Shown here piece by piece: positions 9,013 to 53,922 of a stretch of DNA of 64,000 nt. Source of the stretch: Thermoprotei archaeon (lineage in GTDB: Archaea > Thermoproteota > Thermoprotei > Gearchaeales > WAQG01); assembly GCA_038881895.1 (NCBI GenBank), contig JAVZOV010000004.1:34521-98520 (forward strand), read 5' to 3'. Each line of letters begins with the position of its first letter. Within the stretch, counting starts at the first letter, position 1. The notes under the pieces are model-generated. The model saw only the letters and a program-made list of their open reading frames with translations. It did no database searches and was not told the origin of the DNA. Position numbers and translations under genes: made by a program.

Positions 9013-9310
9013 TACATTGACATTCTCCGTGGCTGAAGCCAGGAGATTCTCGGTTTGTCGTGGGGCCTCCACTCATCCTACCGAGTTCGGGCTGTGCCAA
9101 GGCAGCCCCTGCCATGAGCATATAGCCCATAGCCCGCTCGCTGGAACCCCCCCACCCGTCTTGGATGGGAGCCTTATTCCAGCTTTCGGACGTCCCATCC
9201 ACATCCGAGCGACACGCTCAAGGAGATGGTGGACTTGGATGAATATAAACTTAACGGCGATTCATCTCCACGACTGAAGTCGGAAGCCTTCTCGCCGAAA
9301 GAGTGGTAAC
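9013..9310 (-). pseudogene. tnpB: Decayed tnpB 3'-end remnant. The first ~125 bp is homologous to the 3' end and right end of the intact tnpB at 52797-52921; the rest is GC-rich with no intact ORF
   Basis: 9017-9137 aligns at high identity with 52801-52921, differing mainly in a ~22-nt central segment. The minus-strand frame encodes ...RAMGYMLMAGAALAQPELG, the same C-terminal peptide as the intact TnpB. No TnpB-like upstream reading frame. GC content is far above the flanks. Confidence 0.55.
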
Positions 9311-30324: not shown

Positions 30325-30450
30325 ACCTCTTTTATTTTTTTATTTATAGACTACTAAAAACCACATTTAAGCATGATAGCTCATCATGCATCATATTACC
30401 CAAGATCTTAATAAAAGTTAAATACTATTACAGAATAAAATAATTTGGTT

Positions 30451-30574
30451 GGGGCCGTCGTTCAGCCTGGATTAGGATGCCAGCCTGGGGTGAATACCCC
30501 ACAGGGATTCCCGGAACGCTGGTGATCCGGGGTTCAAAACCCTGAAAAGGGTGAAAATCCCCGCGGCCCCACCA
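30451..30574 (+). tRNA. tRNA-Pro (anticodon GGG) with two predicted introns: 26 nt after position 37 and ~19 nt within the T-loop; genomically encoded CCA
   Basis: Manual folding: acceptor GGGGCCG/CGGCCCC, D-stem GTTC/GGAT, anticodon stem CCAGC/GCTGG with loop CUGGGG|intron|C, T-stem CGGGG/CCCCG enclosing 26 nt instead of 7. Confidence 0.65.
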
Positions 30575-30691: not shown

Positions 30692-30783
30692 TGGGGCCGG
30701 CCGGATTTGAACCGGCGATCCCCAGGGCCCGAGCCTGGTACTCTAGGTTTTTAGCTTCCTAGACCAAGCTAGACTACGGCCCC
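30692..30783 (-). tRNA. tRNA-Pro (anticodon CGG) with a ~16-nt insertion (probable non-canonical intron) in the D-arm; no encoded CCA
   Basis: Reverse complement folds as acceptor GGGGCCG/CGGCCCC, intact anticodon stem-loop CCAGG-CUCGGGC-CCUGG, T-arm GCCGG-UUCAAAU-CCGGC; the D-arm region is 38 nt instead of ~19. Confidence 0.6.
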
Positions 30784-30877
30784 GGATAAATATAAGGAGA
30801 ACAAATATAAATTTCTTTGTTGTATCACTATGTCCAAGCTTAAATAAGAGAGGGTTTATGTTTTAAGTTGATGCAAT

Positions 30878-31279
30878 GTGGGTATCATAGTAAAGGGTAT
30901 AATATTTAGCGGATTAGGTGAAGGTGCCTATTATTTGTCTCAAACAAATTATGTAAATCAAATACAAGAAAAATTAGGCTTCACACCATATCCAGGCACG
31001 CTCAATATTAAAATCGATAAGGATTTAGGTGTTCAGATTTTTAATGAACTCAAAGGATTTAAACATATACGACTAGATCCATTCTTTGATGGTAAACGTT
31101 TTTATGTTGGCGTCTCATGTTACAGAGCAAAAATTAATGGATCAATGTTTGGAGCAGTGATAAGAGCGGATAAAACATACTATGATGAAAGTGTTTTAGA
31201 GGTCATAGCACCTGTATATTTGCGCTCGCATTTTAATTTAAAAGATGGCGATCAGGTAATAGTAGAAATATTAGGGTAA
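30878..31279 (+). CDS. ribK: Archaeal CTP-dependent riboflavin kinase (RibK, MJ0056-like)
   Basis: Small ~130-aa protein with GxGEGAYY and PYPGTLN motifs typical of archaeal riboflavin kinase; GTG start. Confidence 0.65.
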   Translation: MGIIVKGIIFSGLGEGAYYLSQTNYVNQIQEKLGFTPYPGTLNIKIDKDLGVQIFNELKGFKHIRLDPFFDGKRFYVGVSCYRAKINGSMFGAVIRADKTYYDESVLEVIAPVYLRSHFNLKDGDQVIVEILG

Positions 31280-31433
31280 CCTTTTAGAGTGATCACATCA
31301 ATTAACTTGTTCATAAATCTCTTGTATTGATCTTGAACTGTTGTGATGATATTATATGCAGTTCTATACGTTCTTCAACGTTTTTTACTCCCTTTTATGC
31401 TTTAATAAAAATTCTTAATTTATAAGATTTCAG

Positions 31434-32315
31434 TTATTGTATAGAAGATGAGGGATTCCATTTTTTGTCGCATAGCTTTTTGTATACTTTAAAGTTGAGA
31501 TCCTTTAAAATTGGTGCAGCAGTTTTTTCTTGTACTTCTCTTAGACGCGTTATATCTATATCTGTAATAAGTACTGTGTCTTCTTCTTCGTTACCCTCTA
31601 CTATAAATCCATTTGGATTATAATCAGTCGTTGTAATGATTGCTGATTTTCCTCTCAGTTTGTATCCGAGCAGTTCGCCTGTAGGGTCTATTCCACTTGA
31701 GAGGGCAACAATACCTTGTGATTCTATTGCTCTTGCATGTGCAGAGAATCTTATCCAATTATATGCTCCTCTTCCAGGTGCTAGACTTGGCACTAAAAAT
31801 ATTTCGGCACCATCTAATCTCATTATTCTGAAGATTTCTGGAAATCCTACATCATAACATATTCCAGTTCCTATGATTATTCCATTATGTTTGAACGTTA
31901 ATACATTATCGCCTGTATAAAGTCCCATCTGCTTATCGAATAAGTGCAGATGTATTTTTCTATACTTTAATGCAGGTCCGTCAGGTCTAAAAATATGTGC
32001 TGTATTATAATAATTGTCATCATCCCCTAATGTTATCGTACTCCCAGCTAAAATTGTCATACCATATCTCTCTGTTAGTTCACTAAAAATTTCAACATAT
32101 CTGCCATAATAATCATAAAGAATTCTAGTTAAATCAAGAGATGGTTTTCCGAGCAATCTTTTATCCTCTACTAGTTCAAGGGATACTAATTCCGGAAAAA
32201 CGATAATATCAGCCTTTTCATGCCATGCTTTAACAGTATGCCTTGTTACGTGATCAGCAAATTCTTTGAATCCTCCACCAACACGAAACACATACTGAGA
32301 CACAGCAATCCTCAT
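31434..32315 (-). CDS. Carbon-nitrogen hydrolase (nitrilase superfamily)
   Basis: FPEL...(E), catalytic Cys context GTGICYDVGFPE; typical C-N hydrolase length. Confidence 0.75.
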   Translation of the reverse strand: MRIAVSQYVFRVGGGFKEFADHVTRHTVKAWHEKADIIVFPELVSLELVEDKRLLGKPSLDLTRILYDYYGRYVEIFSELTERYGMTILAGSTITLGDDDNYYNTAHIFRPDGPALKYRKIHLHLFDKQMGLYTGDNVLTFKHNGIIIGTGICYDVGFPEIFRIMRLDGAEIFLVPSLAPGRGAYNWIRFSAHARAIESQGIVALSSGIDPTGELLGYKLRGKSAIITTTDYNPNGFIVEGNEEEDTVLITDIDITRLREVQEKTAAPILKDLNFKVYKKLCDKKWNPSSSIQ

Positions 32316-32495
32316 AAATTAACCTCCAACTAATAACTATTTGATCATAAATATAAACTCTTAAGGAAAAGATATGCAGATTGTTATTTCTAAAGATTCG
32401 CTCTTTGAGATAAGATGATAATAGAAGTGATAAACCTTTTTCTAAGATAGGGTTTTTATAGAAAACTTTGTTTCTTCAGGATTGAAGAAAAACGT

Positions 32496-32885
32496 TCAGA
32501 TTATTTCGATTACGACTTTTTCAAACTTTTCATTCCATGCGCTAAATCGTCCTGTACGAGAATCTATTATAAGCCAGATTCCGGGCCAAGCTTTCATACC
32601 CTCATGATCTTTAGAACTAGGTTCTGGAGGTGCAGGATGCGTATGGTATATTCCAATAATTTCAAGCTTTTCAGATTCAGCTTGTTTAATCGCGTTGTAT
32701 GTATCGTTAGGTTTTATCTTAAAACTTACTTTAGTATTATCACTTGCATCTGCATCATATACATATTTTACTATGAAATCCTCTGATCCTCTGATTCCTA
32801 TTAGAAATCCTGCTAGTTCGACAGAGGACTTAACAGCTTTTTTTACTATCTTCTCGATATCATTCTTTTTTATTAATAGTCTCAT
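32496..32885 (-). CDS. JAMM/MPN+ metalloprotease (Mov34 family)
   Basis: JAMM motif IGIYHTHPAPPEPSSKD (H-x-H-x7-S-x2-D) with an upstream Glu; the likely start is the internal ATG (MRLLIKKND). Confidence 0.7.
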   Translation of the reverse strand: MRLLIKKNDIEKIVKKAVKSSVELAGFLIGIRGSEDFIVKYVYDADASDNTKVSFKIKPNDTYNAIKQAESEKLEIIGIYHTHPAPPEPSSKDHEGMKAWPGIWLIIDSRTGRFSAWNEKFEKVVIEII

Positions 32886-32990
32886 ACATGTATACCTATT
32901 CATAACCTATTAATAAATTTGACAACAGGACCTATGATTATGTGAAGAAGAAATTCTACAAAAGACAGCATAAATTATTTATATTTAAGC

Positions 32991-33650
32991 GTGTGTTTTC
33001 ATAATGTGAGTATTGATAATATCTTGCGTACAGCTTTAAGTAGTAAGGCGGTAGGACCTAAACCATCTTATGCATCAGTACATGTAATAAAATGTATAGA
33101 ACTTATAAGAGATCTAGGACCAATAGGCAGGCTTCGTCTTTCTAAGGAATTAAAACTCGGTGAGGGTTCAATGAAAACATTATTAGGAAAACTTAAGGAA
33201 TTAGGTCTGATCATTACAGAACGACAAGGATGCGCCTTAACTAATAAAGGTATTGAGGTAGGATTATGGCTTAAATCAAAAATACCCTCTCGTACATATT
33301 TAGGAAAAACAGTTCTAGCCATTGGTGATCACGCATATGCTCTACTAATAAGAAGTATCGACACGAAAAAACTAAAAACTGGGTTAGAACAACGTGATGC
33401 AGCACTTTTAGTTGGTGCACTGGGTGCATCAACGTTAATCGTGAGAAATAATCAAATAATACTACTACCTGATTTAAATGTTAACGAGAAATACCCTAAT
33501 GAGGCAGAAAGATTGCATGTATTATTAAATCCTCATGACGGAGATATAATAATAATCGGTAGCGGTGATAATCCACTGACAGCTGAGTTTGGCGCCCTTT
33601 CAGCATTTATTACGTTAATAAAAAATCCTGAAATCTTTAGAGTCGCATAA
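32991..33650 (+). CDS. Hypothetical protein with an N-terminal winged-helix-like segment
   Basis: ORF of 219 aa; no catalytic motif recognised. Confidence 0.35.
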   Translation: MCFHNVSIDNILRTALSSKAVGPKPSYASVHVIKCIELIRDLGPIGRLRLSKELKLGEGSMKTLLGKLKELGLIITERQGCALTNKGIEVGLWLKSKIPSRTYLGKTVLAIGDHAYALLIRSIDTKKLKTGLEQRDAALLVGALGASTLIVRNNQIILLPDLNVNEKYPNEAERLHVLLNPHDGDIIIIGSGDNPLTAEFGALSAFITLIKNPEIFRVA

Positions 33651-33682
33651 AGGTCATGATTACTTTAATTTTTATAAAACAA

Positions 33683-34756
33683 TTAAGACTTATTATTCTT
33701 AGTAGGATAAGATAATTTCTCCTCGGAAAATTCCCTGATTTTTTCCTCTTTTTGAATTAAATACTTTCCACTCTTAATAAATACAGATCCAGAAATCGTT
33801 ACATCAAACCATACCATTATGCCTCTAATCAATAATGTTGCGCTAGCAGCCACCGTTCTCGGAATCCCTATTATAATGAAAGATAATGTCATTCCGGTTT
33901 CAACAACCCCTAGTGCTGCCGGTATACCTATTGGCATTATTGTTAATGTAGAATAGATTGGGTATATGGAAAGGAGAATGATATAGTTTATGTTTTTATA
34001 TCCTAATGAGAGTAGCATGGAGTAAATCATTAGAGATCCAAAGATCCATTGGAGTGTCATCACCATTGTGGCTAAAAATATGAGATGCTTTCTATTTTTG
34101 CTTAACTGAATACCCTCGTTAATTCCTGATGCTAAATTGTCTATGTCGTACATTGTTTTATTTATGTTTCTAGGAATCTTGATGATCTTATGGAAGATGA
34201 TTATGAGCTTTTTAAGTATCATGCTAAATTTATTTGGATTCCTCACAAAGAAGACCAGCACTACTATGAGAAAAACCATTGATGCAATAAACCATAAAAT
34301 ATAACCAAGCAATAACGTTCTATTAGACTCATTCAAGAATATTCCTAGTATTATGAGGACTATAAGTAATACTGTATATATAAGGCGTTGGAAGGCGGCT
34401 GTTGCTATTAATTTGTCGGTTTGTCCATTATTTTTGTTTCGCACATAAAGTATTCTAAAAGTCTCCCCAGCTAATGATGCTGTGGGAATCATTATATCAC
34501 CAAAGATAGCAATCAGCGTTGCCTTCAAACTCTCAATATAATTAAGTTTCATACCCATAGCTCTGAGAAGTAAATGCCATCCGAGCGCACTAAGTAATAT
34601 AGCAAGTGATTCAAAAATTATTCCAAACAGAACGTATAACGGGTTTACATGAGAAATCGTGCTGTAAATCATAATAGGATTATTTAAGTAAATAAAAGTA
34701 ATAACTATTATGATACCTATTACCGTGAATAATACGACTCTTGTTTTGATGTTCAT
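33683..34756 (-). CDS. Polytopic membrane protein (flippase-like / UPF0104-like topology)
   Basis: Eight or more predicted TM helices; weak resemblance to the lysyl-PG-synthase-type transmembrane domain. Confidence 0.4.
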   Translation of the reverse strand: MNIKTRVVLFTVIGIIIVITFIYLNNPIMIYSTISHVNPLYVLFGIIFESLAILLSALGWHLLLRAMGMKLNYIESLKATLIAIFGDIMIPTASLAGETFRILYVRNKNNGQTDKLIATAAFQRLIYTVLLIVLIILGIFLNESNRTLLLGYILWFIASMVFLIVVLVFFVRNPNKFSMILKKLIIIFHKIIKIPRNINKTMYDIDNLASGINEGIQLSKNRKHLIFLATMVMTLQWIFGSLMIYSMLLSLGYKNINYIILLSIYPIYSTLTIMPIGIPAALGVVETGMTLSFIIIGIPRTVAASATLLIRGIMVWFDVTISGSVFIKSGKYLIQKEEKIREFSEEKLSYPTKNNKS

Positions 34757-34811: not shown

Positions 34812-35360
34812 GTGAGCAAAATTCGAGTAAGATACTCAGAAGGACATATAATAGCATATGACCCGAAGGAAGCTCCTAAATTATTCAAGGAAGGCTTTTA
34901 TGGAAGACCTATTGGAATTGGCAAACCCAAAACATTTAATTTCGAAGCACCTCTTCAATTAAGTCTTTACGAAGCACTATATTTATTAGAAAATGGTGTT
35001 ATAGAGGTAGTAGACACTAACAATAATCCAGTATCCTTTGAGAAACTTTTTTTGGATGCGAAAAAGAATTATGAGGATTTTGATTTAGTATATTCAGTTT
35101 ATAAAGATCTCAGGAAGAAAGGTTTTGTGGTGAGACCAGGAATGAAATTTGGTACAACTTTTGCAGTTTACGAATATGGTCCAGGAATCGATCATGCACC
35201 GTTCCTAGTAGAAATAATGAAAAAGGACAGTAAGTTGAAAACTATTGATATAGTAGGTGCAGGAAGATTAACACATACTGTTAGAAAAAAGTTATTATTA
35301 GCAGTAGTTAATGAAGATAATAGTGTTAACTATTACATGTTCAGATGGATTAAATTTTAA
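34812..35360 (+). CDS. endA: tRNA-splicing endonuclease catalytic subunit
   Basis: Conserved EndA core ...DLRKKGFVVRPGMKFGTTFAVYEYGPGIDHAPFLV... (catalytic Tyr/His/Lys context); 182 aa, as in Sulfolobales catalytic subunits; GTG start. Confidence 0.8.
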   Translation: MSKIRVRYSEGHIIAYDPKEAPKLFKEGFYGRPIGIGKPKTFNFEAPLQLSLYEALYLLENGVIEVVDTNNNPVSFEKLFLDAKKNYEDFDLVYSVYKDLRKKGFVVRPGMKFGTTFAVYEYGPGIDHAPFLVEIMKKDSKLKTIDIVGAGRLTHTVRKKLLLAVVNEDNSVNYYMFRWIKF

Positions 35361-52796: not shown

Positions 52797-52960
52797 AATT
52801 GACATTCTCCGCGGCTGAAGCCGGGAGATTCTCGGTTCCTCAGGCTCAAGCCTTCATCGTACCGAGTTCGGGCTGTGTCAAGGCAGCCCCTGCCATGAGC
52901 ATGTAGCCCATAGCCCGCTTAAGGATGTTCGTTGCTCCATTATAGTCTGCGTTGCATTGG
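52797..52960 (-). ncRNA. Predicted omega-RNA (reRNA) scaffold overlapping the tnpB 3' end and right end
   Basis: Inference from the TnpB family's known architecture; the same ~125-bp segment is what survives in the remnant at 9013-9137. Extent not determinable from sequence alone. Confidence 0.35.
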
Positions 52961-53922
52961 ATTCCGCAGTTTTGGCATTTGAAGAGGCCTCCGACTCGAA
53001 GCCCCCTATGCCCGCATTTATGGCACAGCTTTGAAGTGTTTCTCTCGCTTATCTTAACAACTTTGATTCCGCGCCATCTCGCCTTATACTCTATGAATTG
53101 GCTTAGCCTATGGTATGGGAATCCGTTGTTGAGCTTTCTTTTGAAAGTCCTACCTCTGCCGTTTCGTCTTATGCCCTTGAGTTTTCCAAGAATTATCATG
53201 GAGTCGTTCGCCAAAGCTTCGTTGACTATGGCTCTGCTAATCTTATGCAGGATGTCGCTAACAACTCTTCTCTCTTTACGCCCAATCTTCTTTATGGTTC
53301 TGTAGGCCCTCTTTAAAGCTAAAGACCTTCTAAGGTAGAAGTAGTGCCCCTTAACCCTTCTAAGCTCCCTCCCATAGAACTTCGGTCTCGGATTGGTTGA
53401 GTTGACTGTTGTGGCTATCCAGCGTATCCCCATATCTATAGCTAAAGTCGACTTAGGATTTCTCTCCTCGACTTCTTTTTCAACAGTTATGTGGACGAAC
53501 CACTCATTACCTTTCTTTACGATTTTTGCCTCTCTGCAAATCATGTCATCAGTTATTGGTTCATGGGTCTTTATAGGGACGTTTATTCCGCCTCTAACCC
53601 CATAAATTGGAATCTTGAGCCAATAAGGCGTCAGCTTGGTGTCCGCTCTGTACATGTCCCTTCTAAGGATTAGCGGGTATTCCTTGTTAGGCTTAACATT
53701 TCCAAGCCTCTTTAGAAGTCTGTCAGCCTGTTGCTTTGTAGCGGAATAAAGTGGAACAGACTTGTCTCCATGCAAATAGCGTTGCCAATTCTCGTATTCC
53801 CTTCTAAGAAGCTCTTCCTTGCCTTTGCGAAGTTCAAGAACCTTTGCCTTAATGGTTTTCTTAGCCTTCATGAGCGACTCGCCCATAGAAAAATTAACTG
53901 ACAAGTATTTAAACGCATTCAT
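52846..53922 (-). CDS. tnpB: TnpB (IS200/IS605 OrfB; RuvC-like RNA-guided nuclease family)
   Basis: RuvC-I LAIDMGIRW, RuvC-II Glu region, zinc finger CHKCGHRG...CQNCGIQC, RuvC-III NADYNGATNI; GC content clearly above flanking genes. An internal Met (MKAKK...) may be the true start. Confidence 0.85.
   Translation of the reverse strand: MNAFKYLSVNFSMGESLMKAKKTIKAKVLELRKGKEELLRREYENWQRYLHGDKSVPLYSATKQQADRLLKRLGNVKPNKEYPLILRRDMYRADTKLTPYWLKIPIYGVRGGINVPIKTHEPITDDMICREAKIVKKGNEWFVHITVEKEVEERNPKSTLAIDMGIRWIATTVNSTNPRPKFYGRELRRVKGHYFYLRRSLALKRAYRTIKKIGRKERRVVSDILHKISRAIVNEALANDSMIILGKLKGIRRNGRGRTFKRKLNNGFPYHRLSQFIEYKARWRGIKVVKISERNTSKLCHKCGHRGLRVGGLFKCQNCGIQCNADYNGATNILKRAMGYMLMAGAALTQPELGTMKA

Follow-up and report, generated by a model that had tools for sequence, protein, structure and literature searches.

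Can a tRNA gene that carries an insert in its anticodon loop and another in its T-loop be read as intact? The question is raised by positions 30451-30574 (+) of the window, by which we mean the whole stretch of 64,000 nt that was analysed, and where an earlier note had read a tRNA-Pro(GGG) gene with two introns, one of them in the T-loop. The observation is confirmed: the segment is a real tRNA-Pro(GGG) gene with two short introns. According to the reading that we favor (with a probability of about 0.88) it is a functional gene of an uncultured hot-spring archaeon of the Thermoprotei, the transcript of which would carry two protein-spliced introns. The parts of the gene, and the box that precedes it, are these:

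30418-30424, + strand: TATA-like box TTAAATA, 27-33 nt upstream of the tRNA-Pro(GGG) 5' end (read from the sequence)
30451-30490, + strand: exon 1, tRNA positions 1-37 (acceptor 5' strand, D-arm, anticodon-stem 5' strand, and loop CUGGGG with the anticodon GGG and G37)
30491-30516, + strand: intron 1, 26 nt, canonical 37/38 site, TGAATACCCCACAGGGATTCCCGGAA
30517-30538, + strand: exon 2, tRNA positions 38-59 (C38, anticodon-stem 3' strand, variable loop TGATC, T-stem 5' strand, T-loop UUCAAA)
30539-30557, + strand: intron 2, 19 nt, T-loop site 59/60, ACCCTGAAAAGGGTGAAAA
30558-30571, + strand: exon 3, from tRNA position 60 (U) through the T-stem 3' strand CCCCG and the acceptor 3' strand CGGCCCC to the discriminator A73 (30571), followed by CCA (30572-30574)

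The acceptor stem (GGGGCCG/CGGCCCC), which is identical to that of the neighboring tRNA-Pro(CGG) gene, is followed by TC, by the D-arm GTTC-AGCCTGGATTA-GGAT and by G. The anticodon stem (CCAGC/GCTGG) encloses 33 nt, that is, seven loop nucleotides plus a 26-nt insert, and the T-stem (CGGGG/CCCCG) encloses 26 nt, that is, seven plus a 19-nt insert. Features expected of the identity are present: the anticodon GGG at 34-36, G37, the discriminator A73 and a body like that of other archaeal tRNA-Pro(GGG). The gene as a whole forms a 124-nt G+C-rich island in a genome of approximately 35% G+C.

Standard tRNA finders pass the gene over, as the earlier note had expected. One ARAGORN run over the raw window gives no tRNA at all, and its runs with and without intron options give none at 30451-30574; the Rfam tRNA model at gathering score does not report the locus, and at permissive thresholds Rfam places over it just spurious tmRNA-like and other weak matches. 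In its no-intron mode ARAGORN finds nothing in the raw gene, nor in the gene freed of one insert; when both are taken out, it reports a tRNA-Pro(GGG) of 79 nt (CCA included). The tRNA-Pro(GGG) call, for which an ARAGORN check had been proposed, is thus obtained only once both inserts are gone.

Three other interpretations of the inserts were tried and rejected. When only the T-loop insert is removed, the intron mode of ARAGORN reports a tRNA with a 26-nt intron and shifted boundaries, which it names Ser(GGA): this identity, the outcome of an alternative intron placement, conflicts with the geometry of the bulge-helix-bulge (BHB) motifs and with the orthologues, both described below. A self-splicing intron is excluded by its length, 19-26 nt being much too little. 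A split or permuted tRNA is excluded by order, all parts being collinear within one 124-nt stretch.

Rejection by standard finders is also a point in favor of a pseudogene, that is, a copy of tRNA-Pro(GGG) inactivated by a 19-nt insertion in its T-loop, with another copy doing the work; so is the scope of the search for a second copy, which covers the window only. The product of excision can, in turn, be compared with orthologues. The predicted mature tRNA of 76 nt differs at four of 76 positions from the intronless orthologue L027, which, together with the ARAGORN call on the doubly spliced sequence, bears out the tRNA-Pro(GGG) identity first proposed. It also regains the T-loop TTCAAAT. This is the T-loop of nearly all of the approximately 88 complete orthologues sampled, the sole other variant (TTCGAAT) occurring once. 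The panel comprises at least 120 tRNA-Pro(GGG) loci across Thermoproteota, obtained by a pattern scan of a genome collection (the source genome and its close relatives are not among the matches listed); about a dozen copies are truncated where their locus ends. Among the matches listed, complete orthologues are either intronless or have one canonical 37/38 intron (about 20).

If the 19 nt in the T-loop were retained rather than removed, then the mature tRNA would have an enlarged T-loop with an extra hairpin. Against this stands the panel, in which, among the matches listed, no T-loop insert, and hence no enlarged T-loop, is found in any of the approximately 118 sampled Thermoproteota tRNA-Pro(GGG) genes. 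A T-loop of 26 nt would, moreover, abolish the contact between T-loop and D-loop that sets the L-shape of a tRNA.

Every splice-site pair in the 124 nt was scanned for a BHB motif, consisting of a 4-bp helix, two flanking 3-nt bulges and an outer and inner helix, with the cut placed after the second bulge base. The two strongest strict motifs lie at gene positions 40|67 and 88|108, and these are the two inserts; the search at both junctions that had been recommended therefore gives a strict motif at each. At intron 1 (40|67, 26 nt) the motif is a strict hBHBh' with central helix CUGG/CCGG, bulges GGU and AAC, h=7 and h'=4, in agreement with the 26-nt intron at 37/38 (33 nt enclosed) that had been proposed. 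Intron 2 (88|108) had been put at approximately 19 nt around 59/60, with 26 nt enclosed: its length is 19 nt exactly and it, too, has a strict hBHBh' motif at 59/60, in which the 5-bp T-stem is the outer helix (h=5, h'=4), the bulges are AAA and AAU, and T-loop bases 54-57 (UUCA) form the central helix with UGAA of the intron. The internal CCCT/AGGG hairpin noted earlier is present in the form CCC(T)/(A)GGG: the scan scores it as h'=4 (three C-G pairs and a U-A pair), it was modelled as CCC/GGG, and it is seen in the minimum-energy fold. All pairs in both motifs were checked and are standard. The T-arm imitates the anticodon arm, with a 5-bp stem, a 7-nt loop and an intron after the sixth loop base (59/60 like 37/38). 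If the 19 nt belonged to the mature tRNA, they would nevertheless supply precisely the 4-bp helix and the pair of 3-nt bulges required by the splicing endonuclease EndA, in the register of a canonical intron.

The T-loop contains a run of A, and sites from 56/57 through 59/60 all yield the same mature T-loop and cannot be separated by sequence alone. The assignment to 59/60 is made because BHB geometry, and this alone, fixes the site within the run.

The strength of the motifs was gauged by shuffling each insert with the exons kept. Of 200000 trials per insert, 10 rebuild a strict BHB at the exact splice sites in the case of the T-loop, and 145 in that of the anticodon loop. The same strict definition (outer helix of at least 5 bp, inner helix of at least 3 bp) gives 71 matches on both strands of the AT-rich window: in themselves, BHB-like motifs are no rarity here. 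Their significance lies in placement, because both sit exactly where excision restores a canonical tRNA.

Thermodynamic prediction counts against the splicing-competent fold. At 37 C the cloverleaf with two BHB motifs has an energy of -39.4 kcal/mol, as opposed to -59.5 kcal/mol for the minimum-energy fold, in which the T-loop region becomes a 6x6 internal loop plus a hairpin and the two BHB motifs are not reproduced. The central helix of intron 2 (UUCA/UGAA) is weak. Since the BHB-containing fold is not that of minimum energy, thermodynamic prediction alone lends no support to it, and the discrepancy is a point for the pseudogene. The hairpin seen in the minimum-energy fold is, in addition, of the kind that a retained insert would form.

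A further line of evidence concerns evolutionary processes affecting exons vs. introns. Relatives were found by scanning metagenomes for a T-arm with an insert and for homologues of the 662-aa protein encoded upstream. The same two-intron gene was recovered from five loci (L159, L160, L178, L182 and L183), and five distinct versions were compared: those of the window, L182, L159 (=L160), L178 and L183. Relatives occur in the metagenomes that underlie Ga0080004, Ga0272445, ERR6412195, SRR28178316 and SRR11582167. In the relatives the neighboring 662-aa protein is 88-92% identical and its coding DNA approximately 80% identical, and intergenic DNA is unalignable. Among the five versions none of the 76 exon columns varies, as opposed to 12 of the 48 in the introns (Fisher p=4e-6). 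In 11 of these the position is unpaired within the motif, either in a hairpin loop or at the last base of a bulge; the remaining one belongs to the inner helix of intron 1, where A, G or U stands opposite U. Intron 1 (26 or 27 nt) varies at six of 27 alignment columns, including a 1-nt indel; intron 2 (19 or 20 nt) varies only at loop positions and at the last bulge base. The pattern of drift is plain: loops and bulge bases change, stems do not. Pair counting found no compensatory changes or co-varying pairs among the five versions, because the relatives are too close.

These data bear most directly on the pseudogene. Its exon positions would have had to remain identical (76/76) in five versions despite flanks that have diverged beyond alignment, and its insert would have had to keep every paired position of a perfect BHB. 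Change in the insert is confined to loops and one bulge base, the signature of selection on a splicing substrate. All five gene-carrying loci, furthermore, keep the gene beside the same protein gene. The pattern of conservation thus argues against a pseudogene and for selection on the splicing substrate, and we consider inactivation by the T-loop insert very unlikely. A conserved stem with a variable loop would also fit a hairpin that is retained; against this it can be argued that this genome splices one or more introns out of that very transcript. Together with the panel of orthologues and the register of the motif, this makes retention of the 19 nt highly improbable. We infer that the T-loop insert is removed in vivo.

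Conservation extends a short distance beyond the gene. Relatives have a TTAATATA box at a distance similar to that of TTAAATA in flanks that are otherwise unalignable, and TTAAATA may be the archaeal promoter of the gene. The trinucleotide after the discriminator is CCA in the window, L182 and L178, and CTA in L159, L160 and L183: because of the latter, the genomically encoded CCA is not conserved and is probably coincidental. Synteny is kept only for close relatives (92%, 90% and 89% protein identity). Where protein identity falls to 81% or 76%, different genes occupy the site, and the comparison that bears on the age of the T-loop intron is confined to the close relatives.

A second intron-bearing tRNA gene lies next to the first, in convergent orientation:

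30692-30783, - strand: tRNA-Pro(CGG), with one 16-nt BHB intron (30741-30756) in the D-stem 3' strand (about 24/25)

The motif of this intron has the central helix CUAG/CUAG (h=8, h'=1), with an outer helix drawn from D-loop and anticodon-stem bases. In its raw form the gene gives a partial match to the Rfam tRNA model (31 bits, model positions 7-64) and is misread by ARAGORN as Phe(AAA); the spliced form is read by the same program as tRNA-Pro(CGG). The gene is kept in L159, L160, L178 and L183, with an intron of 15-17 nt. A contig from a second public assembly of this lineage (L001/L122; GCA_038883275.1, JAVZML010000328.1, 2915 nt) matches window positions 30789-33700 with identical proteins and ends 5 nt before the tRNA-Pro(CGG) gene, which suggests that the pair of tRNA-Pro genes, with their shared acceptor-stem sequence, breaks short-read assemblies at this point.

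Such a break raises the possibility that the inserts are artefacts of assembly or binning, or else what is left of a site where a mobile element integrated. The sequence comes from a metagenome-assembled genome, and a second assembly does break beside these tRNAs (L001). The same architecture is nevertheless present, independently, in assemblies of two JGI metagenomes and of three Logan sequencing runs, and neither an integrase gene nor a direct repeat flanks tRNA-Pro(GGG). An artefactual origin is thus scarcely credible, and the reading as a functional gene with two spliced introns is the one that we carry forward.

If the two inserts are introns spliced by protein, then the host should possess a suitable endonuclease. 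The window encodes the catalytic subunit of one, 4 kb downstream of tRNA-Pro(GGG) and near both intron-bearing tRNA genes:

34812-35360, + strand: EndA catalytic (alpha) subunit, 182 aa, Pfam PF01974 (4.6e-29) and PF02778 (7.3e-17)

Among solved structures, the best relatives of this protein are EndA alpha chains from A. pernix, S. tokodaii and P. aerophilum, the closest being that of A. pernix (3P1Z_B, E=1e-45). The alignment with 3P1Z_B runs through the crenarchaeal-specific loop without a gap, and places K38 at A. pernix K44 and K40 at R46. Crenarchaeal enzymes owe their broad substrate range to this loop, and it is the loop, together with K44, that lets the enzyme cut introns at non-standard positions (Hirata et al., PMC3241643). 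Neither the structural beta subunit of EndA nor the ligase was found within the window; a phmmer search of its 143 ORFs gave no beta-subunit paralogue.

The proteins also inform on the host, which is a crenarchaeote: the EndA and 662-aa proteins of the window have identical (100%) counterparts at NCBI under the label 'Thermoprotei archaeon'. Next in line for EndA is a clade of approximately 80% identity, beyond which no homologue exceeds 64%. The 662-aa protein has homologues of 80-81% identity that carry the label 'Sulfolobales archaeon'; its best match from a cultured organism is Pyrodictium delaneyi (71%). Because of these labels and identities, the host would appear to be an uncultured lineage outside the Thermoproteales.

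The gene would work as follows. It would be transcribed with both introns. In the anticodon loop, the extended anticodon stem would serve as outer helix and loop bases 32-35 would pair with CCGG near the intron 3' end; in the T-loop, the T-stem would be the outer helix and bases 54-57 (UUCA) would pair with UGAA near the 3' end of that intron. Being in different arms, the two motifs could form independently. EndA would cleave each 3-nt bulge behind its second base and an RNA ligase would join the three exons, to give a 76-nt tRNA with the T-loop UUCAAAU that would receive or keep CCA and read CCU and CCC. From transcription through cleavage and ligation to use in translation, these steps are what we infer for tRNA-Pro(GGG); observed are the anatomy of the gene, its two motifs, the cloverleaf that excision restores, the pattern of conservation and the subunit of the endonuclease.

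In archaea the codons CCU and CCC are read by the anticodon GGG. Together the two account for 279 of the 615 proline codons (45%) in 41 long ORFs of the window. Without annotation of this gene the genome would seem to lack its only tRNA for CCU and CCC, and, given that ARAGORN and the Rfam tRNA model miss it, correct estimates of completeness and codon capacity for this uncultured lineage require an archaeal search that takes introns into account.

With more than one intron, one of them outside 37/38 (37/38 plus 59/60), the gene belongs to the multi-intron class. That multiple and non-canonical introns are known in Crenarchaeota, as the earlier note had said, is borne out by the literature (PMC4090602) and limits novelty: 59/60 is listed among the known non-canonical intron sites of archaea (PMC4090602), archaeal tRNAs with two or three introns have been described (PMC4090602; PMC4033280), and tRNAscan-SE 2.0, which has a routine built for multi-intron tRNAs, gives three introns as the maximum (PMC8450103). 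The closest parallel is tRNA-Pro(UGG) of Pyrobaculum islandicum, with introns at 25/26, 37/38 and 56/57 (Sugahara et al. 2007, summarised in PMC4090602). Both are tRNA-Pro genes with a canonical intron and a T-loop BHB intron, in the setting of a broad-specificity crenarchaeal endonuclease; the window gene differs in having two introns, not three, and in the T-loop site (59/60, not 56/57). It differs from the relaxed forms common in the Thermoproteales in that both motifs are strict hBHBh', and in that the host is apparently not a member of that order.

An enzymatic parallel is the pre-tRNA-Thr(UGU) of A. pernix, the D-loop BHB intron of which is cut by an alpha2-beta2 EndA: this cleavage has been verified and requires the specific loop and its lysine (PMC3241643). 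The EndA alpha subunit of the window keeps the loop and both basic residues, and the neighboring tRNA-Pro(CGG) gene has an intron in the D-arm. The T-loop intron, on the other hand, occurs in a different tRNA and a different arm. A similar arrangement exists in a eukaryotic nuclear tRNA gene, where a T-arm intron and a canonical intron are both removed before the T-loop forms; the splicing enzyme complex is different and the two are not related by descent.

The layout of the gene is thus already known in related archaea. The finding is correct, useful for annotation and unsurprising to a specialist, and leaves knowledge of the mechanism unchanged. It adds a multi-intron T-loop case in a lineage whose labels point away from the Thermoproteales, where such genes concentrate, and the small comparative series shows how such introns drift.

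T-loop introns are found in other tRNA-Pro genes as well, which counts in favor of the reading given above. The metagenome scan for T-arms recovered three with unrelated intron sequences and the same kind of BHB motif, each of which ARAGORN calls tRNA-Pro after splicing:

L123 (Ga0180007_10005377): tRNA-Pro(CGG) of an uncultured archaeon, 16-nt intron at 59/60, strict BHB
L131 (Ga0190361_1053099): tRNA-Pro(UGG) of an uncultured archaeon, 31-nt intron at 58/59, strict BHB
L132 (Ga0180302_10068333, 1655 nt), - strand of the locus: candidate tRNA-Pro(GGG), 170 nt, 32-nt T-loop intron at 58/59

Is the T-loop intron of the window gene kept by selection in its lineage, beyond being a neutral passenger? 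Two variants of this idea can be formulated. The intron could break the segment from T-arm to 3' end that serves viruses and plasmids as an attachment site for integration; or else it could keep the pre-tRNA in a shape other than the L, such that T-loop modification and end-processing wait for splicing. The invariant intron stems in the five versions, and the T-loop introns in three other, unrelated tRNA-Pro genes, bear on the idea. Selection for spliceability would by itself lead one to expect this same pattern, and we regard a benefit through a blocked attachment site or ordered processing as unlikely.

The L132 candidate contains, in all, four BHB-type inserts: at 7/8 (15 nt), 37/38 (23 nt), 45/46 (24 nt) and 58/59 (32 nt). 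Its spliced product of 76 nt is tRNA-Pro(GGG) by ARAGORN; the outer helix of the 45/46 motif is just 1 bp and the contig is short. Published work gives three introns per archaeal tRNA as the maximum (PMC8450103, PMC4033280). Four, if real, could be a record, one above that maximum.

A separate observation concerns a TnpB-type gene elsewhere in the window:

52846-53922, - strand: TnpB-type gene (Pfam OrfB_IS605 and a Cas12f-like TNB domain)
52798-52935: G+C-rich element overlapping the 3' end of the TnpB gene, with a weak match to the HgcC family (26 bits, below threshold)
within 9018-9241: second, nearly identical copy of the 3' element (~120 nt), between semialdehyde dehydrogenase and PfkB kinase genes

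The copy within 9018-9241 is an orphan, with no TnpB ORF beside it. The G+C-rich element at the 3' end of the TnpB gene is probably a guide (omega) RNA.
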